NCBI RefSeq assembly: GCF_004010195.1
Contig: NC_057718.1
Location: forward strand, 68,639,223-68,703,222
Reading direction: 5' to 3'
From: Chiloscyllium plagiosum
Taxonomy: Eukaryota
Length of the DNA stretch: 64,000 nucleotides
Both the position numbers and the translations under genes were made by a program. This document shows positions 1 through 55,547 of this stretch, piece by piece; the first letter of the stretch is position 1, and the number at the start of each line of letters is the position of its first letter. Below the pieces are notes generated by a model. That model did not search any database. It was not told the DNA's origin and saw nothing but the letters and a program-made list of their open reading frames with translations.

Positions 1-137
1 GCCTGTATTTCTGATGAAGGACTTTTGCCCAAAACGTCGATTTTACTGCTTCTCGGATGCTGCCTGAACTGCTGTGCTTTTCCAGCACCACTCTAATCTA
101 GACTCTGGTTTCCAGCATCTGCAGTCATTATTTTTAC
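1..137 (+). mobile_element. Solo family A hammerhead/Penelope terminal repeat (mutated core)
   Basis: ctgatgaaggacttttgcccaaaacgtcg...ggatgctgcctgaactgctgtgcttttccagcaccact; same sequence family as 16117 and 35184. Confidence 0.8.
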
Positions 138-139
138 CA

Positions 140-380
140 CACTAACGCTCTGACCCACCCAGACCCATTCCCCTACATTTACCCTGAACACTTATGGACA
201 ATTTAGCACGTCCAATTCACCTGGCCTGACACTCTTCTGATTGTGGGAGGAAACCGGAATACCCAGAGGAAACCCACACAGACACTGGGAGAATGTGTGC
301 AAACTCCACACAGACAGTCACCCGAGGCAGGAATCGAACCCGGGGTTCCTACTGCTGTGCTAGCCACTGTGCCACCCCAT
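140..380 (-). mobile_element. HE1-type tRNA-derived V-SINE
   Basis: Reverse complement of ggttcgattcc B-box, tgtgtggagtttgcac...gggtttcctc V-SINE core and ctaaattg region. Confidence 0.85.
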
Positions 381-1829
381 GGTGGCTCAGTGAGTTTCTC
401 CACTGTAGAGTAGGGGGAAGACCTTGTTGACTTGAGTTTCTCCAGCAATTGCTGTAGTTTCAAATTTTCAGCATTATAGCATTTCTTTGTTTTATTTAAG
501 TCAGGGTTGAAGTGGCTGAGGCTAAATTCTGTGACAGACCTCACTTCTCCATCATTTTTCTTTGTGTTTCTTAATGGAGTTCTGTTTGAATACAGATTTT
601 AACTGATACTTTTGTTTCTTTAGAATTTTAGTGGCTTAATAAAATCTGCATTTCTGGTTTTGAAGCATGACTGTTGCTGCTACGTTCCATTTTATTTCTG
701 GTGGACCCATCCTGATTTGGTTAGGTATCAGAGGCCAGCCATGTGTTGATCTTTTAGACCCTACATTGTCATATGCCATTCATGATGTCAGCTTGGTGTG
801 ACTACTTCTCTGCTTATCCTTCCTGTAGGGCTTGCTACATTCTGTACATTTCTGCTTGGATCAACAGGTGCCAAGATGTGCCTCAGGATCACAATTTGTC
901 AAATTCTGTGTTTTGTGCTACTGAAAACTTTTAACGTAGGTGCAAAGTCTAAATACTTGATCAATGGTGCCTTGCAAATGTTGCAAAGATAATGTTACTA
1001 AGTATCAAAAGGTGGCTCTGTTACATTGGAGGCTAATAAACTGAAGACTGTGCCTTTTAAATTTAAGTTGAGATAAAATGCAAATGACCTAGAGGTCTAC
1101 AGTGTAAGAAAAGGCCACTTGATTCATCATGTGATCTATTTTGAAACCTGCCTGACAGCAAGCTGGAGAGGTTTGATTGGTCTAGATTAAAGACCGATAG
1201 TTTTGTTTTTGTTTGTTTGTTTGTTTTACTGGGAAGAATGTGTAAGGTATTCACCCTTTGGAGGAATTGGGAATAGCCCATATGATTAGACCATAAGTCT
1301 CCAGAGTCATAGAGATGTATACAGCATGGAAACAGACCTTTCGGTCCAACCTGTCCATGCAGACCCTGGGAAAGTGTTTAGAATGCCAAGTTGTAAACTT
1401 CGCGTTTACCTCCAAGAGGAGAGATTTGGAAAGTCCTGGCTAGCTAATCAGCATCTTTATCTGGATACAAGGCCTACGTGTTCATGTTACCATGATGATG
1501 GACTTTGAGATGGGAGGGGTACAGAGGAAGTCATTATGGTATCATCATATAGGATTTCCCAAAATATCACCGAATATCACAGGTTCTCAGAGTCTGAAAG
1601 TGAGTGAAGCTAGAGCTGGAAAGTCTATATCGTTTAATGAGCTGGACTGCAATAGAGTCCTAGTCATACAGCATAAAAACAGGCCCTTCAGCTCACTAGT
1701 CTATGCTGACCAACACTAATCCCATTTACCTGCACTTGATCCATTGTCTGCTGTGCTCTGGTGTTTTAAGTGCTTGTCAAGATTCTGCTTAAATGTTGAG
1801 AGAATACCTGCCTGCATCAGTCAATAGAT

Positions 1830-2480
1830 GTGAGGCTGGAAAAGCACAAAACGTCAGACAGCATCCGAGGAGCAGGAAAGTCAATGTTTTGTCGAGACTG
1901 GGGGGTGGGAGGTGGCAATGGTGATAGGTGATTAGTCACTGGCAAGGATGGAGTGGATAGAGGAGTCGGAAGATGGACAGAGATAAAGTCAGGTTAGGGA
2001 GGCAAGGAGGAGGGGTAGCGCTAGATATGGGATAAGGCTGGAGGTGACGGATTTTGGAGGTGGTGAAATCAATATTGAGGCCATTGATCTGTTAACTCCT
2101 CCCCAGGCAAAATATCAGACAGTGTTCCTCCAGTTTCCATCCAGCGCACTTGATAGTGGAGCAGGCCAAGGATGGACATGTTGCTGTCAGAGGTGGAATT
2201 AAAATAGATGGCAATCATAAAGTTGAGGGCGGGGGGGGGGGGCGGGGAGAGGGGAGGGAACGGTGGCTGATGAATGCAGGGTGCAGATACTCCCCGAGTC
2301 TGCGTTTGGCCTCAGATTTAGAGGAGACTACATCTGGAGCAACAGGTACAACAGATCAGGTTGGAAAGAGTGGAGGTGAAATTCTGCATCTAGAAGGATC
2401 GTTCTGGGTCTTGGACGGAGGTGAGAGGGGAAATGCGGAGGTGTAGGGACAGGTGTTACGCCTCTTGTGGTTGAAGAGAA
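1830..2480 (-). mobile_element. Decayed Penelope-like (Neptune-type) 3' fragment
   Basis: Family A repeat remnant (ctggaaaagcac...gcatccgaggagcagg) followed by purine-rich tract and sequence similar to 20660-21580. Confidence 0.65.
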
Positions 2481-3107: not shown

Positions 3108-3298
3108 AAGTTAAAAATCAAAACACCAGGTTATAGTCCAACAGGTTTAATTGCAAGCACACTAGCTTTCGGAGCGCCGCTCATTCATCAGGTGGTTGTG
3201 GAGGACACAACTGTAAGACATAGCAAATATATATTTGCTATAAATTCTATAACTTGGTGTTGTATGATTTTTAACTTTGTACACCCGAGTCCAACCAC
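3108..3298. mobile_element. Family B hammerhead-containing fold-back element (partial right arm)
   Basis: gttaaaaatca...ctagctttcggagcgccgctcattcatcaggtg plus inverted ggtgttgtatgatttttaactttgtacaccc; same family as 14297-14511. Confidence 0.8.
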
Positions 3299-4619: not shown

Positions 4620-6420
4620 TTTATTTCCCTACTGCATTATTCTCACTTCTGCCTGGAATAAACTCTACCTGCCATTTCTCTACCCACATCTCCAGCTCTA
4701 TATCCTGTATCTTCTGGCAATCCTCCTCCCTAAATTACATATATTACAAGCAACAGGCGTCCCAGCACTGATCCCTGCGGAACAACATTGGTTACAGATC
4801 TCCAGTCAGAAAAGCACCTTTTGCGCTATTACTCTCTATCTTCTGTGACCAAGCCATTTTGTCTCCATCTCCGCAGCTCACTGCAAATCCCATAAGACTT
4901 CACCTTTTGTATGAGCCTGTCTTGAGGGACCTTGTCAAAGACCTTGCTAAAGTCCACACAGGCAAGATCTACTGCCCTGCCCTCATGAATATCATTGCCA
5001 CTTCCTCAAACAATTAAACATTTTGAGACAACCTCCCTGCACATTTCTTAAGTCTGTATTTTTCAAAATATAAGAATCTTCTCCAATAATTTCCCACCAG
5101 TGGCATAAGGCTTATTGGCCTGTAATTTGTAGAATGTTCAAGGTTGCCCTCTTTAAACAAAGGAACTGTGTAGGTTATTCTCCAGTCTTGGGTTTCTCCT
5201 GTGACTAAAGTATGAAATCATGTATCCACAAGGCCCAGAAATTTCCTGAGGACTTGTCTACCTTAATGCCTTTTAAAACACTCACCACTCGTTTTATGTT
5301 GACATGCCCCAGAATATCAACATACTCCTCTGGAGACTCACTATCCACCATGTCCTTTTCCTTTTGTGAATACTGAAACAAAGTATTCATTCAGGCCCTC
5401 ACCAATTTCCTCCAGTTCCATGCTTAAATTCCTCCCATTGTCCTTGAATGGACCTACCCTTTCCCAAGCTATCCTCTTGCTTCTTATATATGCATAAAGC
5501 ACCTTGGGGATTTTTCAAAACCTGTTTGCCAAAGACATTTCTTGGCCTCTTTTAGCCCTCCTAATTCGTGCTATCTTGTTATATAAGGGCTTGTCTGCCT
5601 TCAGTTTCCTAAACTATACATATGTCTCCTTTTTCTTTTTGACTAAGCTCTCAATTTGGAGTCCTGATAAAAGGTTTGTGCCCAAAACGTCAATTCTCCT
5701 GCTCTACAGATGCTGCCTGACCTGCTGTGCTATTCCAGCACCATGCTCTCGACTGAGCTCGCAATTTGTCTTGACATCCAAGATTCCTGAATCTTGCTGT
5801 TGTTATCCTTCATTTTCAAAGGGATATGCTAATGCTTAACTTAAATCTACTGGCCTTTTAAAAGATTCCTACATGCTCGATGTGGATTTACCCTCGAACA
5901 GCTACCGGTTCACATTTTCCAATACCATTATGGTAGTTAGTCTTTCCTCGGTTTAGTACTTTAACCTGAGGGCTACTCTTATCTATACGTTATTTAAAGC
6001 TTACAGAATTATGGTAGCTTCCTGAAATACTACCCCACTGAAACTTCAAACCCTTAGCTGAGCTCGTTCTGTAATACCAGGCGACTTCCCTAGTTGAAGT
6101 ATTTACAAATTTGTTCACAAAACTGTTCTGGACAGTGACAAATTCTCCCTCATCCATGTCGCTGGCAGTAAGTGTATTGTAGTCAATATAGGGGAAACTA
6201 AAATCATCTACTGCAACAGATTGTTGTTTTCAGATTTTTCCATAATCTATCAAAATATCTGTTCCTCTATCACCTGATGTCTTTTGGGAGGCTAGAGTAT
6301 AATCCCATCAAAGTGATTATACTCTTCCTATTCTTGAGCTCTACTCATATAGCCTTGCTTGATGAGCTCTCCAAAATTTTCTCCCTTATCAGTTAAGCAA
6401 CTCCCCCACCTCTTTTACAT
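4620..6420 (-). mobile_element. Old CR1 LINE fragment(s)
   Basis: Minus-strand KVDKS.G, VDFSKVFDKV motifs; heavily decayed. Confidence 0.65.
5659..5750 (+). mobile_element. Solo family A repeat inserted in CR1
   Basis: Mutated hammerhead core; flanking 18-bp direct repeat gactaagctctcaatttg (5641) / gactgagctcgcaatttg (5751). Confidence 0.8.
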
Positions 6421-8990: not shown

Positions 8991-9774
8991 TGGGCCATAT
9001 GTCATAAAGACTTGCAGATTGTATCAACAACAATTTCTAGCTGCGTTTGCAAGTGTAATGAATTGGCTCATGCTTGTGGGATGCTGTTCGGAGAGTTGGT
9101 GCGAACTTCATGGTTTGAATGGCCTGCTTCCTCACTTTAGGGATTCTATGATATTAATAACAGGACCTTATTCTTTACAGGCCAAAAGAAGATAAATAGA
9201 CACTGCATGTGTTCCAACTTATCTCCATAGATGACAGCTATTCTCTGGTTCATTGATTATTTAAGCTATTGCCCTGAGAAGAGTCAACTTGTCTGGTTAA
9301 AAATTTACACAACTCTGGTGGTTAACTGTCGATTATCATAAATTGCATTCCATTTAATTTGTCTGCCAATTAGAGTACACTGCCAAACACTCAGCATTCT
9401 GTCTCATGCAGTACAAATGTTGTTTTCTCTTTACATTGGTATTTCTTGCAACTTTTTTGTGAATGCAAGACAAAAAGCTTCTGCAAAATATCTTTCTTTT
9501 AGCAGTACTCCAGATCTTTATTATGAAATAACATTTTCATAAGAGCATGGAATATCAGTTTTTTTGTATGAATGAATTGATGACTATTTGCTTCAAGAAA
9601 GAAGGATTAATGTGGAAGGTTGCGGGGTGGGGCGGTTGGTGGGGGTTGGAGTGGAGTGGAGTGCCGGGGGAGAAAGGATGTTGATGGATCAGATTAAGTG
9701 ATTGGAATATGAGAATGACAGAACAATGATGTGCCTAACTGCCAGAATGGAACTACAAGAGCACATAGACAGGG

Positions 9775-11120
9775 GGCTGGAAGAGTACAGCAAGCCAGGC
9801 AGCATCAGGAGGTGGAGAAGACTGATGTTTCGGGAATAACTCATCTTCAGGAATAGGGGTGGGGTCGGAATGGGACTATTTGGCGTTGCCCTTTTGGCAC
9901 CGATCATTTGGCCCTGCCATTTTGGCTCTAAACTGTTTTGGCGCTCATTACTTTGGTGCTGAGCTATTTTGGCACCAATTCAGAATAAAAAGAAGTCTTG
10001 TAGAGCCCGTAAGAAATTAGTTTTATTGCATTGTAAGAAATAAATCTAATTATTTTTTATTCATTATTTTTAACCTATTCATTACAAAAACGAATTTCTA
10101 CATTTTGCTACATTTATCAAACACCTATAGATAACCATCGTGTGAAAATTTTGGTTTGTCTCTCTTGCTTAGAATATTTTTAGACATATCTGGTATGGGC
10201 TCTACAACAAAATAGAAAGAAAATTGTATTACAGCTTTCCAATGTGAAGACAGAAGGGCTTAAGTATCATCAAGGCAGTAGATGACTATTAACAATTGTT
10301 AAATGAGAAAATGATTACAAACTGAGATCATTACAGCTTTGACTATCAATTCTTGCTAGTTGAGAAAATTACATCGGGTCGTTGGTCATCCCTTCTTTAA
10401 CCAAACAAGACTTTTTAAAATTCTGAATTGGTGCCAAGGTAATGAGCACCAAAACAGTTTAGAGCCAAAATGGCGGGGCCAAAAGGGCGGTGCCAAAAAG
10501 TACCTGATCCGTGGGGATAGGGGGAGTTGCAGATAGAGAGGGAGGGGAAGAGCTTTGGTTGGGGAGAGGAGTGAAGTGGTGAGGTAGGTATGCCCTGGTC
10601 GGTCAATAGGAGGGACAAATCTTGTTGGTAACTGGAAGGACTGGTCGGTCAGAGGGATGGAAGGGAAGAGGCAGGGCTGGAAAAGGATTTGAGGAATGGG
10701 TGGGAAGGTTAGTTGAAATTGGAGAACTCAATATTGAGTCCTGCGGGCTGTAAGCTGCCTAGCTGGAAGATGAGGTGGTGTTCCTCTAATTTGCTGTCTG
10801 ATTCACTGTGGCAATAGAGGAGACGGAGGATGGACATGTTGGAGAGAGAGTGGGAGGGGGAATTGAAATAGGCGGTGACTGGGAGGTCAGGTCAGCCCTT
10901 GCGGGCCTGGCTGAGATGCTTGTAAAACATGGCCTTAGTTTACGTTTGGTTTCACCAATGTAGAGAAGACCACAAAGGGAGCATTGGATACAGTAAACTA
11001 GGTTGGAAGAGAGGCAGATCAACCTCTGTCTCACCTGGAAGGACTGTTTAGGGCTCTGCGTGGAGGTGAGGGAGGTGGTTTGCCAGCAGGAACAGACTGG
11101 CCCACTGGGTCGGGGGTGGG
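9775..11120 (-). mobile_element. Penelope-like element (Neptune-type) 3' end with GIY-YIG endonuclease, interrupted by a fold-back transposon
   Basis: SSNLVYCIQCSLCGLLYIGETKRKL GIY-YIG motif (10786-11148 ORF); degenerate hammerhead repeat at about 9775-9853. Confidence 0.85.
9866..10511. mobile_element. Non-autonomous fold-back/MITE DNA transposon
   Basis: About 100-bp inverted arms built from ttttggc repeat units (9866-9985 vs 10418-10511) around an AT-rich core; splits the Penelope element. Confidence 0.75.
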
Positions 11121-12746: not shown

Positions 12747-13106
<360 letters not shown>

Positions 13107-14349
13107 TAAGAAGTAGTAGTGAGAATTCTGATGTTTTGTAACCAAGTCAGTGGATTGTTAATACCAGTGCAAAGAATGGTTAGAATTTCAATCAAGTATA
13201 ATGAATTGGCAATCCTTTTGCATTTATAAAAGACCAAAAAATACTATTACTTGATACTTGGACTGCTGGACAAGCACATAGATGGCAGTAAGTTGAGAGG
13301 TGTGTAGGTAAGGTTGATCTTAGATTAAGATAACTGTTCAGCAAAACATCATGGACCAAAGGGCCTGTACTATGCTGTACTGTTCTATGTTCTATTTGGG
13401 AACAGTGTCCCAATGAGTCATTCAATTACATGATGGTTAATCTGTAGTTTGTTTTTAAATCAACTTATGACATTCTGTGACATAACTCCAATGCAAGTGG
13501 GACTTGAACCTTGGTCTTCTGGCTCAGAGGGAAGGACATTACCATTACACCACAAGACCCCAAACCTTTTAATTTCAGTGCAGTGGAATTTGAAACCCTA
13601 AGCCTTATATTGAGTCCAGTGACTTTGCCACTGTCACCACATGCCTAATCTATTTCTCATTTCTATCTACTGGACTTGCTTTCCTACTTCTTGATATATA
13701 ATTACCTAACAATAATACCAGAATATCCTAGAAGTACTCAACACGTCAGCGAGCATTGTGGAAAGAGATAAACCGGGTTAAACTTCAAGTGATTTGGAGG
13801 GGATATATGCTTCAGAATGCAGAAATTAGAGGGTGGAAGGTGATGTTTTTGTTAATGACCTGCTGAATGGGTGGAAATAGCAGAGCGTTATGTTCTGAAT
13901 AAAATTGCAAAGATAACAGAACCATCCTGGATTTATGTAGCATGACTGTAGTGCTGGGCCACAATGGAAAAGTTGGGGAAGGGAAGGTTGGCACTCAGTA
14001 AGAGGAGCAAACTTTATCCCTACAACTAAACTAGACTTTTAAGTACTTGGAACAGTCTGGCCTTGTATAAGCCACTTGATGGACCTCAACTGGAGTGTTG
14101 TGTTCAGTGCTGGATGCCTCATTATAGGAAAGATGTGAATGCATTGGAAAGGCTGCAGTAGTGTTTTACGAGAATTGTTCTAGGGATAAAAAACTTCAGC
14201 TATGAGGATAGATTGAAGAAGTTGGGATCCTTCTCCTTAGAGACAAGAAGGCTAAGAAGAGATCTGAGAGAGGTTTTCAAAATCATGAGTGGACTTAGTT
14301 AAAAATCACACAACACCAGGTTATAGTCCAACAGGTTTAATTGGAAGCA

Positions 14350-14384
14350 CACTAGCTTTCGGAGCGACGCTCCTTCATCAGGTG
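14350..14384 (-). ncRNA. Minimal type I hammerhead ribozyme, family B (inverted partner)
   Basis: Minus strand CAC-CTGATGA-A-GGAGC-GTC-GCTCC-GAAA-GC-TA-GTG. Confidence 0.8.
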
Positions 14385-14395
14385 ATCAGAACAAT

Positions 14396-14430
14396 CACCT
14401 GATGAAGGAGCGTTGCTCCGAAAGCTAGTG
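14396..14430 (+). ncRNA. Minimal type I hammerhead ribozyme, family B
   Basis: CAC-CTGATGA-A-GGAGC-GTT-GCTCC-GAAA-GC-TA-GTG; CAC/GTG stem I, AGCT palindrome, predicted CUA cleavage after 14427. Confidence 0.8.
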
Positions 14431-16021
14431 TGCTTATTAAACCTGCTGGACTATAACCTGGTGTTGTGTGATTTTTAACTTTGTACACCCCAGTCCCATA
14501 CCGGCATATCCAAATCATGAGTGGACTTGACAGAGTGGAGAGAAAGAGACTATTCCTGCTTAGCAAAGGATGAAGAACCAGAGATTTAGAGGTTTGCAAA
14601 AGGAACAAATGTGACACAAGAAAAGAACATTTTAATAGTGAGTGTTTAGGTGAGGAATGTACTGTCTCAAGTGTGATGGAGGCAGGTTCAATTGAGGCAT
14701 TCAAAGGGTGTTGGGATGATCATTTAGAGAGAAATAATGTGCAGAGGTATGGGAGAAAATGCTGGAAGTTGGCAGTAGGTAGTGATCATTTGAAGAACGG
14801 GTGCAGACATGGGCCGATTGGTCTCATTGTGCAAATTTAATGGAAATAAAGCTAAACTTATCATATTAATATTTTGGTAAAGCTAAGCTTATTTAGCATT
14901 ACGATTGTGTACTATTTAATGTTATGAGTGCAGTTTAATGTTTTGAAAGGACTGAGTTTGGGCTAATTTCAACTATGTTTGCATATGATCTCCAGAAGAC
15001 TTTAACAGCAAGTTGGTAGAGTGCAAGATTTTGATTTAGTATACCTGGGCTGTTGATTTGGATAAAAAAGGTAAATTTCTGCTCATGCCAAACTCAGCAA
15101 TTTCTCTCTCTCTCTCCTGCCTTCCTTATCTGCACGTGCCCTTCTGCTCCCTTGTTATATTCTGCCATCTTCCACACTCTTGCGCATGACAAGAAAGGCA
15201 CAAGCTAAATTGAATTTGGAGGTGGCAACAATGTAGTTAGGAGTAATGTTGTAAGTGTAAGTATTATTGGTATTTGATCTCTTCTGAGATTCGGGTCAGA
15301 GAAGCAATTGAATTCTTAAGTTAATGAAAGGCTAAGCTATTTAGCAGAAGAGGAACAAAACTGTTTTAAGGATTTTCTTTTTATATGACTGACTCTCTAG
15401 CTTCTACTTGCTGCTACTCCAAATTAGGCTTGTGCAAACTGGGAACTCAGCAATATGGACAGAATCTGTATCATCACGGAGTCATGTACTGTAGCTTAGA
15501 TTTGTGAAACATCATTTTTCAGCAGTGGAGGCAGTTGTCTTATCGGGAACTGAACTGATGATATGTCAAAGTTTTATGTAAGTATGTTCTGTAAAACACT
15601 GCTGGATCAAGATGCTGAGATCTAATAGTCATTTAGTTTGTGAAGGGAAATTTGCAGATCGATATAGAAATGCTGAGGCAAATTGTTCCTGTTTTCCATA
15701 AGCACAGACAAAAGATCACTTTTGGGATTTTACTCCTCTACCTATTTTTCTAAGCAATCTGTTCAGAAATATTATTACATACCTCTGAAGCAGGTGAGAC
15801 TTGAACCCGGACCTCTTGACCTGTGAGTAGGGACATTACCTCTGTGCCGCAAGAGTCTCTAAATAAGCAGCACGTATCTTTGAATTTAAATTAATGTATT
15901 TTTCCCAATTGACCTGTTCAAAATGTAACTACACACCGCTGGAGCAAGTGGGACTTGAACCTGGGCTCTCAGTAAGGGTTAGGGACACTGCCACTGCCCC
16001 ACAAGAGCCCTAAATGAGAAT

Positions 16022-17525
16022 TAGAACATAGAACATAGAAGAATACAGCGCAGTACAGGCCCTTCGGCCCTCGATGTTGCGCCGATCCAAGCCCACCTAA
16101 CTTACACTAGCCCACTTCCTGATGAAGGGCTTTTGCCCGAAACGTCGATTTTGCCTGTCCTCGGATGCTGCCTGAACTGCTGTGCTCTTCCAGCACCACT
16201 GATCCACTATCCTCCATATGCCTATCCAATGCCCGCTTAAATGCCCATAATGAGGGAGAGACCACCACTGCTACTGGCAGGGCATTCCATGAACTCACGA
16301 CTCGCTGAGTAAAGAACCTACCCCTAACATCTGTCCTATACCTAACCCCCCTTAATTTAAAGCTTTGCCCCCTTGTAATAGCTGACTCCATACATGGAAA
16401 AAGGTTCTCACGGTCAACCCTATCTAAACCCCTAATCATCTTATACACCTCTATCAAGTCAAATCCCCCTACCAATAAACGCCAACACACCATATGCCTT
16501 CTTAACAGCCCAGCCAACCTGGGTTGCAACTTTCAGGGGTTTATGCACTTGGACATCAAATTTTCTCTGCTCATCTACACTGCCAAGAAGTTTACCATGA
16601 GCCTAGTACTCTGCATTCCTGTTACTTCTTCTGAAGTGGACTACCTCACACTTTTACACATTAAACTCAATTTGCCACTTCTCAGCCCAGCTCTGCCTCT
16701 TATCTATTATCTGTGACCCACAACAGCGGTCGGCACTATCCACAACTCTGCCTACCTTAGTGTCATCTGCAAATTTACTAACCCATCCTTCTATACCCAC
16801 ATCCAGATCATCTATAAAAATGAAAAACACCAGTGGCCCCAAAACAGATCCTTGTGGCACACCACTGGTAACTGAGCTCCAGGATGAATATTTCCCATCA
16901 ACTACCACACTCTGTCTTCTTTCAGTTAGCCAATTTGTGATCCAAATGGCTAAATCATCTTCAATCCCGAAACTCCATATTTTGTGCAATAGCCTACATT
17001 GTGGTACCTTACCAAACGCCTTACTGAAGTCCAAACATACCACATCAACCAATTTACCTTCAACCACCTGTTTTGTCACTTTGTCAAAGAACTCAATAGT
17101 GTCAGTGAGGCACGACCCACCCTTCACAAAACTGTGTTGACTATTCCTAATAAAATTATTCCTTTCCAGATTATTATAAATACTATCTCTTTTCCAACAT
17201 TTTCCAATACTTTACCCTGAAGTAAGGCTCACTGGCCTATAATTTCTAGGGTTGACCCGACTCCCCTTCTAAAACGAGAGAACAACATTTGTGACAACGA
17301 GGACATAAAAATCAAGGTCAATGGCTCTGCAATCTCCTCCCTTGCTTCCCGGAGAATCCTAGGATAAATGCCATCAGGCCCAGGGGACTTATCTATTTTC
17401 ACCCTTTCCAGAATTTCCAACACCTCTTCTCTACATACCTCAAAGCCATCCATTCTACTTAATTGTGACTCAGTATTCACATCGACAACAATGTCCTGTT
17501 CCTGAGTGAATACTGACGAAAACTG
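16022..17525 (-). mobile_element. HER1/CR1 LINE, 5'-truncated
   Basis: RT motifs [39 protein letters not shown]; (tagaaca)n reversed tail at 16022. Confidence 0.92.
16117..16150 (+). ncRNA. Minimal type I hammerhead ribozyme, family A (intact core)
   Basis: CTGATGA(16119-16125)-A-GGGC-TTTT-GCCC-GAAA-C-GTC; predicted cleavage after 16146. Confidence 0.8.
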
Positions 17526-25549: not shown

Positions 25550-25639
25550 TTGAAACTTTATTGCTGGAACAGCACAGCAGGTCAGGCAGCATCCAGGGAA
25601 CAGGAGATTCGACGTTTCGGGCACAGGCCCTTCTTCAGG
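25550..25639 (-). mobile_element. Solo family A hammerhead repeat
   Basis: Exact 13-bp TSD aacaagacttgtg at 25537-25549 and 25640-25652. Confidence 0.9.
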
Positions 25640-25641
25640 AA
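25608..25641 (-). ncRNA. Minimal type I hammerhead ribozyme, family A (intact core)
   Basis: Minus strand reads TTC-CTGAAGA-A-GGGC-CTGT-GCCC-GAAA-C-GTC-GAA; TTC/GAA can form stem I. Confidence 0.8.
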
Positions 25642-35183: not shown

Positions 35184-35277
35184 CTGTATTCCTGATGAAG
35201 GGTTTTTACCCGAAACGTCGATTTTACTGCTCCTTGGATGCTGCCTGAACTGCTGTGCTCTTCCAGCACCACTAATC
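35184..35277 (+). mobile_element. Solo family A hammerhead repeat
   Basis: Exact 15-bp TSD cattgtctgttcata at 35169-35183 and 35278-35292. Confidence 0.92.
35188..35223 (+). ncRNA. Minimal type I hammerhead ribozyme, family A (intact core)
   Basis: CTGATGA(35192-35198)-A-GGGT-TTTT-ACCC-GAAA-C-GTC; predicted cleavage after 35219. Confidence 0.8.
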
Positions 35278-37058: not shown

Positions 37059-37558
37059 NNNNNNNNNNNNNNNNNNNNNNNNNNNNNNNNNNNNNNNNNN
37101 NNNNNNNNNNNNNNNNNNNNNNNNNNNNNNNNNNNNNNNNNNNNNNNNNNNNNNNNNNNNNNNNNNNNNNNNNNNNNNNNNNNNNNNNNNNNNNNNNNNN
37201 NNNNNNNNNNNNNNNNNNNNNNNNNNNNNNNNNNNNNNNNNNNNNNNNNNNNNNNNNNNNNNNNNNNNNNNNNNNNNNNNNNNNNNNNNNNNNNNNNNNN
37301 NNNNNNNNNNNNNNNNNNNNNNNNNNNNNNNNNNNNNNNNNNNNNNNNNNNNNNNNNNNNNNNNNNNNNNNNNNNNNNNNNNNNNNNNNNNNNNNNNNNN
37401 NNNNNNNNNNNNNNNNNNNNNNNNNNNNNNNNNNNNNNNNNNNNNNNNNNNNNNNNNNNNNNNNNNNNNNNNNNNNNNNNNNNNNNNNNNNNNNNNNNNN
37501 NNNNNNNNNNNNNNNNNNNNNNNNNNNNNNNNNNNNNNNNNNNNNNNNNNNNNNNNNN
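37059..37558. other. Assembly gap (500 N)
   Basis: Run of N. Confidence 1.
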
Positions 37559-39650
37559 AGGGTGCTTGAGAGTTACATGTTAGTCAGGAAAGACCTATAG
37601 AGAGAGAGCTAAGAAGAGCCAGGAGGGGACATGAGAAGTCATTGGCAGATCAAGAAAAAAACCTGAAGTTTTCTATAGGTATATAAGGAATAAGAAAATG
37701 ATTAAAGAAAGATTGGGACCAATCAAGAATAGTAGTGAGAAGTTGCACATGGAGACTGAGGAGATAGGGAAGCACTAAATGAATATTTTTGGTCAGTTTT
37801 CACACTGGAAAAAGACAACGTTGTTGAGGAAAATACTGAGATACAGGCTACTAGACTGGATGGGATTTTGGTTGACAAGGAAGTGGTGTCAGCAATTCTG
37901 GAAAGTGTGAAAATCAATAAGTCCCCTGGGCCAGATGGTATTTATCCTCGGATTCTATGGAAAGCCAGGGAGGAGATTGCAGAGCCTTTGGCTTTGATCT
38001 TTATGTTGTCATTGTCTACAGGAATAGTGCCAGAAGACTGCAAGGATTGCAATGTTGTCCCTTTGTTCAATAAGGGAAGTAAAGACAACCCTGGTAATTA
38101 TAGACCAGTGAGCCTCACTTCGGTTGAGTAAAATGTTAGAAAAGGGTATAAGACATAGCATTCTTCATCATCTAGAGAGGAGTAAATTGATTAGGGATAG
38201 TCAAAGTGGTTTTGTGAAGTGCAAGTTATGCTTCAAAAAACTTATTGACTTCTTTGAGATGATGACCAAACAGGTGGATGAGTGTAACGTGGTGGATGTG
38301 GATTTCAGTAACGTATTTTGTGCAAAAGTCTCCCCACAATAGGCTATTGCACTAAATACGGAGGCATGGGACTGAGGGTAATTTAGCAGTTTGGATCAGA
38401 AGTTGGCTAGCTGAAAATACAACAAAGGGTGGTAGCTGATGAGAAATGTTCTTCCTGGAATTCAGTTACTAGTGGTGTACTGCAAGGATCTGTTTTGGGG
38501 CCAACTGCTGTTTGTCATTTTTATAAAATGACCAGACAAGGGCGTAGAAGGATTAGTAAACCTGTGGATGACAGTAGGATTGGTAGAGTTGTGGATAGTG
38601 CTGAAGGATGTTGCAGGTTACAGAAGGACAGGTTATAGATAAGCTGCAGACCTGGGCTGAGAGGTGGCAAATGGAGGTTCATGCGGAAAAGTGTGAGGTG
38701 ATTCACTTTGGAAGGAGCAACAGGAATGCAGAGTACTGCGGGCTAATGAAAGGATTCTTGACACTGTAGATAATCAGAAAGATCTGTGTCCACGTAGACA
38801 GATCCCTGAAAGTTGTCACCCAGGTTGATAGGTTTGTTAAGATGACATCAGGTGTGTTAGCTTTTATTGGTAGAGAGAATGAGTTTTGGAGCCATCAGGT
38901 CATGCTGCAGCTGTACAAAACTCTGGTGTGACCACACTTGGAGTACTGCATATAGTTCTGGTCACTGCATTATAGGAAGGATGAGGAAGGTTTGGGAAGG
39001 GATCAGAGGAGATTCACTAGGATGTTGCCTGGTGTGGAGGGAAAGTCTTACAAGGAAAGTCTGAGGGACTTGAGGCTGTTTTCACAAGAGAGAAGGTTGA
39101 GGGGTGCATTAATTGAGACATACAAGATAATCCGAGGGTTAGATAGGGTGGACAGTGAGAGCCTTTTTCCTCGAATGGTGATGGCTAGCACGAGGGGACA
39201 TAGCTTTAAGCTGAGCGGTGATAGATATAGGATGGATTTCAGAGGTAGTTTCCTTACTCAGTATTAGTAGTGTGAAATGCACGGCCTGCAACAGTAGTAG
39301 ACTGTAGATTAGAGTAGTGCTGGAAAAGCACAGCAGATTAGGCAGCCATTCATCAGGAAGGGCTTTTGCCACAAACGTCGATTTTCCTGCTCCTCGGATG
39401 CTGCCTGACCTGCTGTGCTTTACCAGCACCACTCTAATCTAGATTCTGATTTCCAGCATCTGCAGTCCTCACTTTTGCACACAGACGTAGACTCGTCAAC
39501 TTTAAGGGCATTTAAAATGGTCATTGGATAAATATATATGGATGAAAATGGAATAGTGTAGAATAGATGGGTTTCAGACTGGTTCCACATGTCAATGCAA
39601 CATTGAGGGCCAAAGGACCTGTACTGCCCTGTAATGTTTTATGTTCTATG
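37559..39650 (+). mobile_element. HER1/CR1 LINE, decayed ORF2 to 3' tail
   Basis: KSPGPDGIYPRIL, PGNYRPVSLTS, RRFTRMLPG motifs; atgttctatg tail. Confidence 0.92.
39304..39486. mobile_element. Family A fold-back insertion inside CR1
   Basis: Inverted arms tagattagagtagtgctggaaaagcacagcag / ctgctgtgctttaccagcaccactctaatcta; 7-bp direct repeat gtagact (39297, 39487). Confidence 0.82.
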
Positions 39651-44227: not shown

Positions 44228-44660
44228 ACATAGAACATAGAACAATACAGCATAGAACAGGCCCTTCGGCCCACGATGTTGTGCCGAACTTCTAACCTAG
44301 ATTAAGTACCCATCCATGTACCTATCCAAATGCCGCTTAAAGGTCACCAATGATTCCGACTCTACCACTCCCATAGGCAGCGCATTCCATGCCCCCACCA
44401 CTCTCTGGGTAAAGAACCCACCCCTGACATCTCCCCTATACCTTCCACCCTTCACCTTAAATTTATGTCCCCTTGTAACACTCTGTTGTACCCGGGGAAA
44501 AAGTTTCTGACTGTCTACTCTATCTATTCCTCTGATCATCTTATAAACCCCTATCAAGTCACCCCTCATCCTTCGCCGTTCCAACGAGAAAAGGCCGAGA
44601 ACTCTCAACCTAGCCTCGTACGACTTCCTCTCCATTCCAGGCAACATCCTGGTAAATCTT
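44228..44660 (-). mobile_element. Young CR1 LINE 3' end
   Basis: Open frame RFTRMLPGM...FFTQRVVGAWNALP; (tagaaca)n reversed tail. Confidence 0.92.
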
Positions 44661-47499
44661 ATTAATTCAGCAGCTCTTACTTTGAGAGCAAGCAAGTAAT
44701 CATGACACCGAGTGCTCATTAACAGGCTGACATGATGCTGGAAGAATACAAAATGATGGCAGTGACATTGGAATACAAAACTGGTCCAACAACTAGCAAT
44801 TTTGTGCAGGAGAGCTACAGTGCTTCGAAGCCACCCCATGATTGAATCGCTGGAAACCTTACAGACAATGATGTCCTTCAAACTATGGTACAGTGGCTTT
44901 ACTACTGAACTGAAGCTATGCACTTGAAACTTCTTGTTTGTTTATGCAAATAAAACAGTCATAAAAGCCCAAGGAGACATTGAAATAAAAGGCATTGTAA
45001 TCTGATCAAGTTGTTCAAATTCCAAATAAAATTCATCCCCAGACGTTATCGCTCCAATCTCCAGTTAGTAAATGATTAAGTGCATAACTTGAAGTAACAT
45101 ACACAAGTCATATTCAACAATTCCACCCAATCTCAGTTTAGATTTGAACCAGCTTACAACCGCCTCTGAGCCAAGAGACCAGGTTGAGAAGTGTGTCATA
45201 CCACAACTGAACAGGTTAATTAAAAATAAATGAAAGAAGTGAGTGCAGAGAATCATAGCACCTTTGTGTTGCTGAGGTGTTTATCACCTCATTGGAAGGT
45301 TAAACAACCCTGTGCCATATTGAAGCCAGACCCACAAAGCCTTAGCATTCATATCTGAACGCATGTGCAATAATATACAACTACTGCGATGTGCTTTCTG
45401 CTCTGACAGAGAGAGCCGACATTGGAGACTGAGCTTCCCTCCTAGGTCACAGCACTGTGAAATGTCCACACTTGCTCCACTGTTTCCGGGGGACTTGTCT
45501 ATCCTCAAGTTGTTCAAAATGTCCAACACATCTTCCTTCCTAACAGGTATCTGGTTCTTTGATTATCTAGAGATAGAGTTTTGGTCTTATGGTGTAACCA
45601 GCAGGGTCCAAAATGAAAACATTTTAGTGACAGAAACGATCTGCAAGTTTGAAGTCAGGTCCAAGAGAAGATCCAGATTTTACCATCTCTTTTCCAGAGT
45701 TCACAGGACTAAAAGCAGCAGGGTAAATAGAAGCAGGGTATAATGCAGGAATGTGATCTTCACATCCACAGAGGTTCATGAGCTTGAAGTCAAGTTTGAG
45801 AGAAAATCTATGCCCCGTTTGAGGAAATAACAACATTATGGTAATATCATAGGTCTAATAACCCAGAAACGTATGTCTATGCTCTGAGACACTGCTTCAA
45901 ATCCTACCACAGCAGATAGCAGAACTTCAATTCAATTAGCTGAAGAATTTTGCTCATAAATCTGGCTTTGAAAGGTAGTTCCAGTAAATGGTGACCAAGA
46001 ACCTATTGACTTCTGTAAAAACCCACTTTAAAAGGAAGAAACTTCTCTATCCTCAGTGACCCACAACAATATAGTTGACTCAACTGCCCTGTGAAATGGT
46101 CTATGAAACCACTACAGAAAAATGTCAAACCAATTTGGCTGCTGCAGTTCACAAAAATAGTGTACTACCACTTCAGAGGGCAATTACAAATGAGCAACAA
46201 ATGCTTCAATGCCCAAACCACATGAAAGGATAAAAACAATTTTCCAGATCTTTATTAGGCATCAAAGCAAGGTCAGTTTTGTTTCGACTAACAGAGTTTG
46301 AACTAAAATGCACTATTAGATTTCAGCAAACTTAGTACAGGATACCAGTTAAGAGAAGAAAACGCCAAAGATAAATCTGCATAACAAAGCATTCCCAAGA
46401 GTGGATTGCCCAGAAACCATCTTGCTAACAGTCTAAAACTTGCTGCAGTCATGCACTACATATTCCTAAAATCACCTGAATCAAACTGGGGTTTGTTCAT
46501 TTGCTGATCCTCCACAAGCTTTGCTACAACAATAAGATGCCAATAGGCTTGCTTTTGGAAGCTATCCAAGGGTATAAAATTGGGAAACCAGCCCAGTAAC
46601 CATACCAGAAAAATTCAATTCACTTCTAAGTACATTCTTAACTCCACTTGAAGTCTTAATTACTGAAAAATAACCATACCAGCATTGACATTAACGTGCA
46701 CAGGTAGATTTTAATTCTTTTTGGAGGAAACAATTAAATAATTGGCACTCGCTCTTTCACTATTTCAATTTCAACCCCTGATTCAACATTGAAAACATTC
46801 TAACTGGCATTGCTTGGTACAGACCCTGCACTGCTCATAATAATTCTTCATTCAGACTACTTATGGTGATACACAATTGCTTCCTCTTTTTACACAGATC
46901 TCAGGACCCGGATAGAGGGCACCATGCAAAGCAGTTCTCTAAAATTCAATAGAAAGTCCATGGGCAATTATAAATATAATGAATATCTGGTGCCATTTAT
47001 TCATCATGTATAAAACTCAGGCCATTAAATTTAAAAATAGAAAAATAAAACTGCATTCATTGTAAGAAGCAAACATTAAAGTTCGAAACTGCTATCTACA
47101 AGGAAGGTGGAATGTTAACAAGATCCTGGCACCATGAAGGCTGAGCTTGTATGAACAATGATGCTTTTGAAATTCTAATTAATAACTGAAAAAAGTACAG
47201 CTGCTGGATGTTCAGCATGCTAGCTGCTGCTCTGTTAAAAACCAAAAGAGAAATGCACATTTACAGGCATTTAATATCAAGTATTAACTCAAACTATCCT
47301 AAATTGACCCACTAATTTTCTGTAATTTCAGATGGAGAAAGTTTCAATGTGATATTGCTATGATTTTATTTAAATATCAATTACAGAAAGAAAGAGAAAC
47401 AGGAGTTCTTTTATCTTTCCATGGGTAATGTAAACAAGTACTGACAAAATCCATAGAATTCATCCATTATAGGTTACTGTTTTCAAGAAAGGAGATAGC

Positions 47500-49356: not shown

Positions 49357-51425
49357 CATAGAACATCGAATAATACAACACCGGAACAGGTCCTTCAGCC
49401 CACCACGTTGTGCCGAACATGCTAAATTAAAACTAATCCCTACTGCCGGCCCTTAGTCCATATCCCTCCATTCCTTGCATATTCATATGCTTATATAAAA
49501 GTCCCTTAAACACCCTTATTGGACATGTTGCACCCTCACCCTTGACAGAGTGTTCCAGACTCCTACCACTCTGTGTAGAAACGTCCTCTTCACATCTCCT
49601 TTGATCTTTTCCCCTCTCACCTTAAATGCATGCCCCATAGTTTTAGACATTTCAAATCTGGGAGGAAGACTCTGACCCTCAAGTCCAAAGTACTCGATAA
49701 AATTGAGATACAATCAAGTCTCCGCCGCAGCTTCTGCTGCTCCAGAGAAAACAAACTGGGTTTTTCTAGCCCCTCCTTATAGCTCATACCCTCTAGTCCA
49801 GGCAGCATCCTGGTAAACCTTTACTGCACTCTCTCCAAAGCCTCCACATCCTTCCTGTAAAGTGGTAACCAGAAGTGAACACAATACTGTGTGTGGCCTA
49901 ACCAAAGTCTTAGAAAGCTGCAACATGACATCCTGACTCTTGTACTTAATTCCCCGACCAATAAAGGCAAGATTAGATTAGATTAGATTAGATTAGATTA
50001 GATTAGATTACTTACAGTGTGGAAACAGGCCCTTTGGCGTCTCTGGCGCTGTGAGGCAGCAGTGCTAACCACTGTGGCACCGTGCCGCCCCATGACTTCT
50101 TTACGACCTATCTACTTGCACGGCCACTTTTAGATAGCTATGAACTTGTACCCCAAGATACTTGGATTAAAGTCCATCTTCTGTTTCTCGGTGTGGACTT
50201 GTTGGGCCAAAGGGCCTGTTTCCACACTGTAAGTAATCTAATCTAATCTAATCTAATCTAATCTTGCCTTTATTGGTCGGGGAATTAAGTACAAGAGTCA
50301 GGATGTCATGTTGCAGCTTTCTAAGACTTTGGTTAGGCCACACACAGAGTATTGTGTCCATCATATCTGCAACTGATCTATATCCCACTGTATCTTTTGA
50401 CAGCCTTCTATTCTATTCAAAACTCCACCAATCTTTGTATTGCCAGCAAACTTACTAACTCACCCATCAACATTTTCCCAGTACAGATTCGAGCCCATAT
50501 AGAGATCCCTGAGGAAGACCAATAGTCACAGACCTCCAGCCTGAAAAACACCCTTCCACCACCATCCTCTGCCTTCTGTGGACAAGCCAATTCTGAATCC
50601 ACACTACCAAGTCAGTGTGCATTCCATGCAGCTTAATCTTCTGGATGAGCCTACCATAAGGGACCTTTTGAAAACCTCACTAAATTCCACAGAGAACACC
50701 CACTGCTCCACCCTCATCGATCACCATTGTCTTCTCCTCGAAAAATTCAATCAAGTTAGTAAGACATGACCTGCTCTGCACAAAGGCATGCTGACAGTCC
50801 CTAATTCAGCCATGCTTTTCCAAATGCTTGTAAATCCTATCCAATAGCTTCCCAACAACCAATGCAAGACTTATCAGTCTATAGTTTCCTGGATATTACC
50901 TATTTCCCACCATGAACTGAGCAATAACATTAACTACTCGCCAGTCCTCTGGGACCTCGCCAGTGGCTAGCGAGGATACAAAGATCTTGGTCAAGGCCCC
51001 AGCAATCTCCTCTCTTGCCTGTCTCAATAACCTGGGATAGATACCATTAGGCCCTGGGGACTTGACCACCTTAATGCTCAAGATTTCCAATACCACTTCT
51101 CTCGATCTCAAAATGCTATAGCATATTAGCATGCTTCACACAGATCTCTCTATCCTCCCTAACCCTCTCTTAGGTGAATACCGATGTAAAACATATTTAG
51201 GATCTCACCCACGTCCTCTGCTTCCAACCACAAGTTACTTTTTCAAGCGGTCCTACCTTCTCCCTAGTTATCCTCTTGTTTTCAATGTATAGAATACTTT
51301 GGGATTCTCTTCAATCCTACTTGCCAAGGTAATTTCATTGCTTCTTCTTGAGCTCCTAATTCTCTGCTCGAGTTCTTTCTTGCTTTTATATTCCTCACAG
51401 GCCCTGTTCAATTTTACCTTCCGAA
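49357..51425 (-). mobile_element. CR1 LINE fragment with internal HE1 pieces and inverted duplication
   Basis: KSPGPNGIYPRLLRQAREEIAGAL, MLPGLEGMSY motifs. Confidence 0.85.
49970..50010. repeat. (GATTA)n microsatellite, HE1/HER1 3' tail
   Basis: About 8 tandem gatta units followed by cttacagtgtggaaacaggccc. Confidence 0.9.
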
Positions 51426-53913
51426 AGCAGACTTCATAAACATCAGCCATTTCTCCACATCTCTGACAATGTGGGCCAACATCGTCCCTGACCACTCACT
51501 TCCCCTTTACGTAACTACAAAATTTCTTATTGATTTCAATGTCCCTTGCAAGGTTCCTTTCATTATCCCTTTCAGTACCTCTTTTGAACTTCTTTGTGGC
51601 CCTTTGCCAGGCTTTGTATCTTTCCCATTCAGCTGGATCTGTCCTGCTTTTTGCATTTTTATAAAGCACTTTCTTTTAATCTTTCATTGTCCACGGTTGT
51701 TTTTTCTTTGAAGTTGCTTTTCCTTCTCAGGAAATGTGTTCAATGTTTCATTAAACATCCTCCACTGTTGTTCTTTGTTTAACCCATTAACAGATTTTCC
51801 CAGTTTACTGTGGACAGTCGGCATTCCATCTCATTAAAGTCAGCCTTACTTAAATCTAAAACTCTGATAAGGTGATTCATGCTTTTCGCTTTCAAATGTT
51901 ACACTGAACGCTATTATCTTGTGATCACGATTTGTTAGATGTTTACACACAATTACTAATTAAGTTCAGCTTAGTGCTCATTACTAAATCCAACATCGCT
52001 TGTCCTCTTGTTGCTGCAGGAAATCCCAGACACTCTCCAGAATTTTACTATCTTTCTGGCAAGTCCTTGTCTACCTCTCCCAATTTACATTCAAGTTAAA
52101 ATGTCCCTTATAATACTAAACTGACTCTGTTACATACTTGCCTAATATCTGCATTTATACAATCTAGCATCTCAGAGCTGCTACCAGTGGGTCTATACAC
52201 AACCCCTATTACACTTTTCCATCCTTTACTGTTTCTCAATTCCACACGTAAAAGGTCTCCATTAATGCTTTCCCCTCATTGTAGCCTCCTTCACCGCTGA
52301 AGTGATTTTGTTTCTAATTAGTAAGGTTAATTCACCTCCTCTGCCATTTTCCTATCCATCCCATAAACCTTAAGCTGGTATATTTAGTTTCTAGCCCTGA
52401 TCATCTTGCAGCCAAGTCTCACTAACAGCTACTACATCATAACCTCCAATTTGAATTTGTGCTTGCAGCTTATTTATTTTATTCCTTATACTCCATGCAT
52501 GTCCATATTGAACTCTGATTTGGGCCAGACACTAACTTGTTACTCAGTACTTATGCTTTATTCACCTGTGTATTATTTCCCTCTTCTGGTTTAATCAATG
52601 CACCTCCCTCCCTAATCAATGAGTTCAGAGATGTTGTTACACTGCACTGGAGCAGGTAGGACTTGAAGCTGTGGCTCCTGGCTCAGAGGTAAGAATATTA
52701 CCACTGCTGGTGGCAATAGCTCTGTGGGAGATACCCAAGTAAAGTACTGCATTTCTATGTCAAATACTTTCCTGGTGCCATGTCCCTCGATCAGTAACTG
52801 AGTGCCTTTAGAAAGAGGGAATAAAATGACCAGAGATTTACATTCCTGAATTGCTGTTTGGTGACTCCTTAACTTTAGATATTGCACCTCACTGGGCAAT
52901 GCACTGGAAATCAAGCCTTGCTATTTCAAGAGTTTTCACAAACTTTTGTAAAACTGCACATTTCCCAATTTGCTAGTCTTTTAGACCCAGGTTGACACAA
53001 AGCACCGTTCAGGTTTCTGTACTTTAGAATTACTATTTATCACAATTAAATAGTCTCTAGCCGCAGGTAAACAATTATGGAGCACTAACTCCAATAGTGA
53101 AAACTCTATATATATACACACACACACACACAAATGGTTTTATGAATGCAGGGAAAGAGTGGGAAGTCAATTCAAATGGTCCTTACCACAGGGTTCACCA
53201 AGATAATTCTTTCAGTTTGTTAGGACTTGCTATTCCTTGATCATCTTTCTCCAGGTACTCTGCCCTTTTTCAGAAAGCACAGATCGACTGGTTCATACAT
53301 TTAATGTCTCTGAATTACTGGCTAAAAGCCCTTATAAAAGGCTTTGATTCATTATTTAAAGTCATAGCTTACAGAAACTGAAGAAAAAATAAATTGGTTT
53401 TCTTCATGCTCAAAAGGAGTTTTTACTGCAGAACAGCTTCTGATTTGGTAGATCTGATGGCATTACCCAATCATGCTCACAGCTCTACTTAAGAGCCAAT
53501 CACATAGTTATTAACAAAAAGGCCTTTGTCATTGGCAACTGGTCATGAGGTCACAGACCCATCAGTTATTTGCTGCTAGCTGAATCCCAATTTGTATAGA
53601 GCCTTTGATTCCAAACCATGAACCATGAACAGTACTTACAACTGATGCTTTACAAAAAAAAGTCAGTAGTCCATCAAAAATCCTTAATTTTAAGACAGTT
53701 CCTTTTTCCATTCTAGTTCCATAATCAAAAATACAGAAAAATAAAAAGATATGGTCTTTACAAGATGTGAGAAGAGTGAGCTAATTGCTGTCAGGTAAAA
53801 ACATGATTAGATTTGCTGAATATCCTTATAGAATTCATCACCACACAAGAAGTAATGGCTATTTCAACAAAGTATGAATAAGGCATCAACATCAATGACT
53901 ACCTTCAAGAAAA

Positions 53914-55547
53914 TAAAGTAAACAAACAGAAGGCTGGAAGAACGCAGCAAGCCAGGCAGTAGCAGGAGGTAGAGAAGTCAACATTTTAGATATTTACCCT
54001 TCTTCAGGATTAGATATAGGGGTAAGGGAAGCTACAGATAAAAGGGTGGGGTGTGGTTGGGTGGGGAGAGTAGCAAAATGGTGTGGTGGTGATGATAGGT
54101 GGACAAAGGTAGCAAGTATGACCTGGTTGGTCGATGGGAGAGATAAATTCAATTAGTAGCTATAAGGAAGGGTCAGTGGGTGTAATAGAAGGGAGGAGGT
54201 GGGGCTGAAAGGTTATTTGAAATTAGAGAACTCAGTGTTAAGTCTTCTGGGCTATAGGCTGTCCAGGCAGAAGATAAGATGTTGTTTCTCCAATTCGCAG
54301 TCTGATTCACTGTGGCAATGGAGGCCGCCAAGGAGGTCAGTCTGGTCATTTTGGGCTAGGTGAAGATGCTCTGTGAAATGGTCACCTGGTCTACGTTTGG
54401 TCTCACCAATGCAGAGAAGACCACATCAGTAGCACCAGTAGACTAGGTTGGATGACATTTACTATAAAAACTCTCAATCCCATGGCTACCTGGAATACAC
54501 CTCCTTCCACCTCGTATCTAGCAAATATTTCACCTCCATCACATCTGCTGACTAGGAGACATTCCACTCCCAAGTATCTCAGATGTCCTATTTCAAACAA
54601 CATTTTCTCCCCCTCTTCTGACATCCAGACAGCCCTTCACCTTTCCAGCTCTAAACTCCCTTCCACAAACATAACAATGGTAAAGCCCCTCCTTGTCCTC
54701 ACTTTCTACTCCACTGGCCTTCGCATCCAATGTATCATCCTCAAACACTTCCGCCAACTTCAATTAGACCCTACCACCCAGAATATCATCTCCTCCCCAC
54801 CTCTCTGTATTTTACGAGGAACCATTCCTTGGCTCACACTATATTCCCCTTCCAATTCCCCCCAGTATCTTTCCCTGTAACCAAAAAAGGTGCAACACCT
54901 GCCTATACACAACCTCCCTCACCTCCATCCAGGGGCCCCAAACAGTCCTTCCAGGTGAGATTGAGGTTCACCTGCATCTCCTCCAAACTAGTTTACCACA
55001 TCTGGTGCTCTCAATATGGTCTTCACAACATTCGCTGAGCATCTTAGCCAGGCCCAAAACAGTCAACCTGACCTCCTGGTCACCGCCTATTTCAATTCCC
55101 CCTCCCACTCCGACACATCTATCTTTAGCCTCCTCCATTGCCACAGTGAATCAGACCACAAATTGGAGGATCAACACCTCATCTTCTGTCTGTGAAGTCT
55201 AAAGCCCAGAGGACTTAACATTGAGTCCCCTAATTTCAACTAACCTTCCCACCTATCTAGACTCCTTTCCCAGTTCCCTGCCTCCTCCTTTCCATTCATC
55301 CTATTGACCTTTCTTTCCAGCTATCAACCAGATTCCCCTCTCTCCCATCGATCAACCATGTCTACCTCACCATTCAGCTACTCTCCGTTCCCCCCTTCTC
55401 TTTAACTGTAGCTCCCCTTATGCCCACATCTTGTCCTGAAGGGTTAATACCCGAAAGCATTGACTTCTCCGCATCCTGATGCTGCCTGGCTTGCTGTGTT
55501 CTTCCAGCCTCTAGTTTGTCTTCTTTGGATTCCAGCATCTATCTCTA
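53914..55547. mobile_element. Penelope-like (Neptune-type) insertion with inverted 3'-end duplication
   Basis: Minus-strand 3' end 53920-54450 and plus-strand body 54450-55540 (KQSFQVRLRFTCISSKLVYHIWCSQYG); degenerate hammerheads at both ends; candidate 10-bp TSD ttcaagaaaa (53904, 55548). Confidence 0.8.

Follow-up and report, generated by a model that had tools for sequence, protein, structure and literature searches.

Hammerhead-bearing terminal repeats of Penelope-like retrotransposons are dispersed as short, likely inert copies in the genome of the shark Chiloscyllium plagiosum

Minimal hammerhead ribozymes were described in 2014 in the pseudo-long terminal repeats (pLTRs) of metazoan Penelope-like elements (PLEs), and the published examples either cleave weakly as dimers (Cervera and de la Pena, PMC4209133) or need a protein (PMC11167929). 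Endonuclease-bearing (EN+) PLEs are reported to insert as units with a head-to-head inverted arm, a tail on one end, target-site duplications, and heavy 5' truncation (PMC3846280, PMC8557442), and a recent preprint reports both PLEs and retrozymes in one chondrichthyan genome (bioRxiv 10.64898/2026.07.22.740005). Here we describe a 64,000-nucleotide stretch of the C. plagiosum genome (NC_057718.1, positions 68,639,223 to 68,703,222; "the window" below), which carries three families (A, B, and C) of such hammerheads, and their relatives elsewhere in the assembly. With a probability of roughly 0.85, these are hammerhead-bearing pLTRs of Penelope-like retrotransposons, copied as short stubs that number in the hundreds of thousands and are likely inert. 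The feature is of a known kind and had been correctly identified; it has an unusually large copy number and shows no sign of a host function.

A preliminary description of the window had listed 17 sites, and a motif or its remnant stands at every one of them, although its total of about 18 copies proved low: BLAST with natural copies as references over 63 kb of non-N sequence gives 24 copies or remnants (19 A, 4 B, and 1 C), after removal of reference-flank or tail-only matches starting beyond +60 (2 of 26 in the window, 13 of 233 in the genome sample, and 5 of 138 in the intron set described below). Its numbers for minus-strand copies fall within the motif and not at its start; C3 of CUGA lies at 3191, 9850, 14381, 20442, 20655, 25638, 27991, 28500, and 54007. 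The core is complete in all lineage representatives (in one as U3-A8) and in 7 of the 17 listed copies, which also retain helix II and the NUH triplet. A complete motif, taken as these parts together with a self-paired 15.2-16.2 and a helix I of 3 bp or more, is present in only five window copies (14381, 14399, 20655, 25638, and 35192), two of which share one inverted pair with a predicted hairpin fold (-164.6 kcal/mol). A loose structural descriptor has 46 matches in 576 kb of unbiased genome versus 0 to 4 in each of five Markov controls and a single one when the sequence is reversed, so the motif is not due to chance, and the exact patterns searched genome-wide when read backwards gave no matches.

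All three families have the minimal type I layout, namely the 5' strand of a 3- to 4-bp helix I, CUGANGA, a single bulged base, helix II, GAAA, a palindrome, UH, and the 3' strand of helix I, which confirms both the hammerhead catalytic core and the cut-site triplets GUC and CUA that had been proposed. Helix II opens with G10.1-C11.1 and is 4 bp long in A, 5 in B, and 6 in C, compared with 7 to 8 bp reported in Schistosoma (PMC4209133), and a two-base insert makes a 4-nt palindrome that replaces helix III (ACGU in A and C, AGCU in B). The core, the bulge before helix II, the G10.1-C11.1 pair, the palindromic 15.2-16.2 segment, and the short helix I are all as in the minimal hammerheads of the 2014 account, as are the predominance of solo truncated copies, the opposite-strand pairs, and a U3-A8 variant, there found in Schistosoma (PMC4209133). 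Helix II is predicted to form with a probability near 1.0 in four of five folded copies and of 0.01 in the decayed C copy. An Rfam scan of the window matched no hammerhead covariance model at E up to 1. Its miRNA-precursor matches (14334-14443 and 28450-28569), below gathering thresholds, are artefacts of inverted pLTR pairs, and such pairs are a likely source of false miRNA calls.

The stems covary across lineages. Among the helix cells of six lineages, 57 of 60 are paired, whereas shuffling gives a mean of 38 and none of 5,000 shuffles reaches 57; a set of 12 picked copies has 112 of 120 paired. Pairs were tallied by script from anchor positions, a MAFFT alignment having displaced family B by one base. 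Helix I positions 1 to 3 each show three pair types. In an old A-type subfamily, which has its own 4-bp helix I (L223:389-431, L046:2783-2825), the catalytic C3-G8 pair is swapped for U3-A8; its pattern has 736 exact matches genome-wide, and of the first 100 listed, 99 are U3-A8 and one is C3-A8. Core positions had been expected to be better conserved than flanks, and at the level of master elements this holds, the core being invariant or compensated across lineages. Judged from sequence comparison, neither chance nor a neutral repeat would show such covariation together with the compensated pair, and it is very probable that the fold was maintained by selection on the master elements and that it would cut only when dimeric or aided by the element's protein.

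An origin in Penelope-like elements, suggested earlier by analogy, is now established by endonuclease-coding remnants that immediately precede families A and C. In the window, GIY-YIG remnants are found just upstream of the A-type copies at 1889, 9850, 20655, 27991, 54007, and 55436 and of the one C copy. Pfam found no GIY-YIG match in seven broken window frames, so natural genomic relatives were used instead. Those of family A code for a reverse transcriptase (RT) with YIDD, a CX4CXXC linker (CNRKKCKTC), and GIY-YIG. Pfam matches among the relatives have E-values of 8e-4, 2e-4, 0.02, and 0.0035, which fall below curated cut-offs, one of five having no match; there are 19 full-length RT-GIY-YIG homologues (best E, 3e-94). 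One uninterrupted 893-aa Neptune-type frame (G000:C8:30845951-30848083, minus strand) indicates that the family may be recently active. The EN+ open reading frame (ORF), RT plus a C-terminal GIY-YIG upstream of the pLTR, is thereby whole for A, represented by its endonuclease part for C, and by endonuclease fragments only for B. Of the seven B-pair loci with spacers read, two (L120 and L122) have a WYIG endonuclease piece between their arms and two more (L121 and L034) an endonuclease C-terminus; B pairs enclose a second linker-bearing endonuclease (its linker decayed, L122) and a long CA-repeat 3' untranslated region (UTR).

A CX2-5CXXC linker before the endonuclease is the published criterion for Neptune and Nematis elements (PMC8557442), and by its coding sequence family A is of the Neptune/Nematis type. 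Neptune is preferred because only Neptune and Poseidon are reported in vertebrates by the preprint (10.64898/2026.07.22.740005). Family B is probably also Neptune-type, by a weaker link than for A, and family C, whose relatives have GIY-YIG without the zinc linker (L019), is placed as Poseidon-type on the absence of that linker. The A ORF begins about 170 nt after the core, unlike that of the Anolis Poseidon element PAc, which is reported to start in stem II (Frangieh et al. 2024, PMC11167929). Other EN+ unit features are also present, including overlap between a pLTR and the 5' end of the unit that follows, an optional 30- to 40-bp tail, the inverted arm, and the duplication. In contrast to canonical EN+ PLEs, the unit here is usually the pLTR alone (90 to 250 bp), at about 230 per Mb.

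The prediction of a very large genome-wide number is borne out, with at least 66,000 exact-match motifs. In the 3.56-Gb assembly, exact patterns count 53,861 A, 11,909 B, 126 C, and 736 U3-A8 matches (66,632 in total), and a related family A pattern has 56,022. An unbiased sample of large contigs, made up of 100 stretches of 10 kb each and holding 949.5 kb of non-N sequence, has 220 copies (151 A, 49 B, and 20 C), 23 of them complete motifs (∼10%), which extrapolates to ∼0.8 million copies and ∼80,000 complete motifs (Poisson range, about 50,000 to 120,000). The total may be higher, since a hidden Markov model that also catches older subfamilies gives 126 A-type matches in 576 kb. The window is about 1.6 times denser than the sample (24 per 63 kb versus 220 per 949.5 kb). 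Compared with the ∼4,000 reported in coelacanth and ∼9,000 in Xenopus tropicalis (PMC4209133), the number is large, with the proviso that search methods differ; no shark is named in the text of that paper or in two of its supplement files. Literature searches turned up nothing on PLE hammerheads in sharks or on their abundance there, and the preprint's supplements may contain chondrichthyan counts. As a load of working ribozymes, which the preliminary description had implied, the number is not supported: about 10% of copies are complete, half lie in hairpin pairs, and the same-strand neighbors that dimers would require are rare.

The ends of the inserted copies suggest how they arose. Most copies are 90 to 130 nt long, and their 3' ends, numbered from the core, are bimodal in all three families (about +82 to +95 and +126 to +129 in A, +81 to +86 and +122 in B, and +75 to +79 and +108 in C). 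The 5' ends in families A (93 of 151 copies) and B (24 of 49) pile up between -10 and +11, with the mode at -4, and starts at +26 to +33, around the cut site (seven A, two B), are not above neighboring positions. Public reads and contigs have loose-end peaks at the same three junction points. Subfamily mismatch was rejected as a cause of the pile-up, as it explains none of 98 A and none of 32 B copies. Upstream of family A starts between -12 and +20 the context is inverted in 64, unique in 32, and an edge in 2. Of the 220 sampled copies, 110 are themselves arms of head-to-head pairs, and the tail is on exactly one arm in 48 of 53 pairs, on neither in 5, and on both in none. Whole units are surrounded by target-site duplications of 8 to 17 bp, which were sought and not found for the copies at 16119, 20442, and 20655 and the B pair near position 3.2 kb. 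Recombination to solo LTRs is rejected as the origin of the stubs because the duplications flank the whole unit and the 5' ends vary.

Because starts lie at the ribozyme 5' edge and not at the cut site, and because there are two fixed 3' ends, uncut RNA is the likely template. We suggest that the element RNA would start ∼4 nt before the core and carry a pLTR at each end, that it would be copied uncut, and that reverse transcription would initiate inside a pLTR at +85 or +127. Initiation in the 5' pLTR would let the cDNA run off the RNA end to give stubs of 90 to 130 nt, and priming from both target strands would account for the head-to-head pairs in which one arm alone has the tail. We lean modestly towards this scheme as a whole. 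It resembles that reported for PAc, in which two internal RT starts give the tail, both target strands are primed, the template RNA is uncut, and RNA-seq has no ends at the cut site (PMC11167929); the parts of that report considered here do not describe 5' ends piling up at the edge of the PAc ribozyme.

The pile-up could alternatively mark RT stalling at a protein-bound hammerhead, or an endonuclease nick at ATT, rather than the RNA start. The Anolis Poseidon protein is reported to bind near and assist the hammerhead and to prefer 5'-ATT-3' (PMC11167929); ATT occupies -4 to -2 in family A, and starts are scattered from -10 to +20 and not confined to one base. A pyrimidine tract ending in YAG, 17 to 35 nt upstream of A cores (L015, L009, L100, L077, 27991, and 55436), likewise hints at a start farther upstream with an intron, as in Drosophila virilis (PMC2377424); it is kept across subfamilies with otherwise differing upstream sequence and may be a splice acceptor like that of the D. 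virilis pLTR intron. We nonetheless regard stalling or nicking as live but less likely, because one B subfamily with a pile-up has no ATT at its start, and ORF-proximal pLTRs have no upstream UTR in all five distinct loci of a small sample (L141, L243, L244, L052, and L009). In L243 (1350-2050) the unit starts at -4 after unique flank and continues through the tail, 5' UTR, and ∼130 ORF codons into a second pLTR from -4, and in L141 (5000-5900) and L244 (1450-2000) an ORF start of 110 to 130 codons abuts a second pLTR whose own start is at -8 to -4; the first pLTR begins at +1 in L141. These internally deleted units are likely template jumps.

The short copies might instead constitute an independent nonautonomous family, like short interspersed elements or retrozymes, which transcribes itself and borrows the Penelope protein. 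Most copies have no coding sequence, they share one start point, their subfamilies lie 7 to 10% from the majority line, and a sequence like the initiator consensus YYANWYY overlaps the start in four A subfamilies. Animal retrozymes are, moreover, reported to derive from pLTRs and to carry type I hammerheads, as here (bioRxiv 10.64898/2026.07.22.740005). This origin is improbable, given that endonuclease-linked copies share the subfamily heads and both 3' ends of the short ones and that the tail leads directly on into the autonomous element's 5' UTR and ORF. Non-LTR retrozymes are defined by tandem arrays, and such arrays are rare here: the sampled copies are dispersed monomers or inverted pairs, and the 171 core-bearing copies include 12 same-strand pairs within 1 kb, 5 of which join copies of different families.

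A large load of active ribozymes, cutting host pre-mRNAs or co-opted for regulation, is made conceivable by the at least 66,000 exact-match motifs, by the abundance of the motif in RNA on both strands, and by the full 4-bp helix I of some copies (e.g., at 25638). It is nevertheless highly unlikely, as the catalytic bases decay at CpG sites: among 135 A1 copies, C11.1, G12, C15.2, and G16.2 are kept in 81, 80, 84, and 81%, and non-CpG core and tail sites mostly in 95 to 99% (about 97%). Introns show no depletion of sense copies: 643 kb from 8 genes holds 73 copies in sense and 60 in antisense (P = 0.30), of which 12 and 8, respectively, are complete motifs, and neither CpG decay nor intron orientation gives a sign of selection on inserted copies. 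In RNA, 1,860 reads on the family A end span the cut site with no drop and no pile-up of ends, and 93% enter unrelated flanks; a second RNA run had no reads matching the family A end. Half of the copies are masked in hairpins, with predicted energies of -165 to -208 kcal/mol for inverted pairs. Published minimal hammerheads have no activity as monomers (PMC4209133), and eight of nine Xenopus dimers are reported not to cleave (bioRxiv 10.64898/2026.07.22.740005). In all likelihood, then, inserted copies are unselected passengers that would not cut host pre-mRNA appreciably.

Several observations weigh against parts of this account. Family C has no 5' pile-up (4 of 20). Helix I contains a U.U mismatch in the commonest A subfamilies, and the predicted probability that this helix pairs in monomers is low (0 to 0.12). 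The covariation set was chosen by a descriptor requiring helix II and the 3-8 pair, which biases those columns and leaves helix I and 15.2-16.2 as the unbiased part. Orientation of CR1 elements, the control for the introns, is also even (20:21), so with 8 genes and 643 kb the power is limited and weak depletion would be missed. The RNA data are those of one 2026 single-cell poly(A) library, read at ∼2%, whose read ends are not native, and clade names follow the zinc-linker criterion (PMC8557442) and not a tree.

With tens of thousands of complete motifs among ∼0.8 million copies, the genome offers a natural mutational library of a ribozyme, including a compensated catalytic pair. The insertion ends bear on the open question of what the PLE hammerhead is for; they indicate that the copied RNA is not a cleaved product, in agreement with the in vitro work on Anolis. 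The ∼200-bp hairpins formed by half of the copies would affect the host more as double-stranded RNA than as ribozymes. More tentatively, this chondrichthyan genome may be the largest hammerhead reservoir counted so far in the searchable literature, its stubs a fossil record of Penelope mobilization in vivo. In that view Neptune RNA would start with the first helix I base, which would make the ribozyme the extreme 5' end of the transcript; two internal sites, one per target strand, would serve for copying the uncut RNA; and run-offs from the 5' pLTR, some of them self-transcribed in the manner of SINEs, would greatly outnumber coding copies.

The host is an SNX9-like gene on the plus strand. 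Its exon 2 (SH3; 12774-12860, plus strand) matches sorting nexin-9 at E 2e-10, exon 3 lies at 25692-25766 (plus strand), and the BAR-domain exons are 33 to 64 kb beyond the window. Exon 1 was sought and not located, and no further exons were found within the window; one CpG-rich bin lies ∼26 kb upstream. The earlier assignment of the window to an intron therefore holds for 12861-64000 except exon 3, the part before exon 2 not being so placed. The complete antisense copy at 25550-25641 stops 50 nt short of the exon 3 acceptor.

Single family A mini-copies occupy 1-138 (plus strand, with tail, G12 mutated), 5662-5743 (plus strand, core broken at G8 and G12), 16116-16206 (plus strand, core and helix II intact and just 2 bp of helix I), 20315-20446 (minus strand, beginning at -4, with tail and a broken core), and 35184-35279 (plus strand, complete hammerhead, helix I 3/4 bp, 15-bp target-site duplication). 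The antisense copy near exon 3, of subfamily A1c (25550-25641, minus strand), has a complete hammerhead with a 4-bp helix I and a 13-bp duplication. A family A remnant that has lost its core lies downstream of a GIY-YIG C-terminal remnant (2055-2428) within 1828-2428 (minus strand), a 30-nt A fragment is at 58978-59007 (plus strand), and a weak match (E 0.046) at 34154-34232 (minus strand) is a possible old A3-type remnant.

Four head-to-head insertions belong to family A. That at 28405-28652 has arms 28405-28503 (minus) and 28526-28643 (plus, with tail) and a 15-bp duplication, that at 29365-29496 has no hammerhead and an 8-bp duplication, and that at 39304-39486 has its core scrambled at the junction. 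The fourth, a long Neptune-type insertion (53914-55547), bears a GIY-YIG remnant on each of its arms, together with decayed A2 hammerheads at 54007 (minus) and 55436 (plus) and a 10-bp duplication. Family B contributes a pair at 3108-3295, with a minus arm (3108-3220, G10.1 mutated) and a plus-arm fragment (3247-3295), and one at 14280-14528, with arms 14289-14386 (minus, no tail) and 14391-14520 (plus, with tail), both hammerheads complete, and a 17-bp duplication.

Neptune-type 3' ends on the minus strand are found at 9767-11091 (GIY-YIG remnant 10715-11091, 3' UTR, decayed A2 hammerhead at 9850), at 20594-21561 (CX4CXXC linker and GIY-YIG remnant 20908-21561, 3' UTR), and at 27907-28336 (endonuclease C-terminus, UTR, decayed A2 hammerhead at 27991). 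The hammerhead at 20655 in the second of these is near-complete overall and is among the five complete by the criteria used. A Poseidon-type 3' end at 26876-27801 (plus strand) has a GIY-YIG coding remnant without zinc linker, a decayed C hammerhead at 27690, and a tail.

Other repeats are also present in the window. A ∼630-bp insert with long terminal inverted arms (9872-10504), resembling a miniature inverted-repeat transposable element and unrelated to the PLE, sits within the 3' UTR of the first Neptune-type copy. Fragments of CR1-type long interspersed nuclear elements lie at 16107-17211 (with a Pfam RT match at 16657-17211), 33276-33854, 36375-38131, and 44297-44941, and there are two 500-N assembly gaps (37059-37558 and 56214-56713). 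Perfect 114-nt inverted arms with pentanucleotide repeats at 49887-50347 represent either an assembly artefact or a pair of inverted retroposons of very recent origin.

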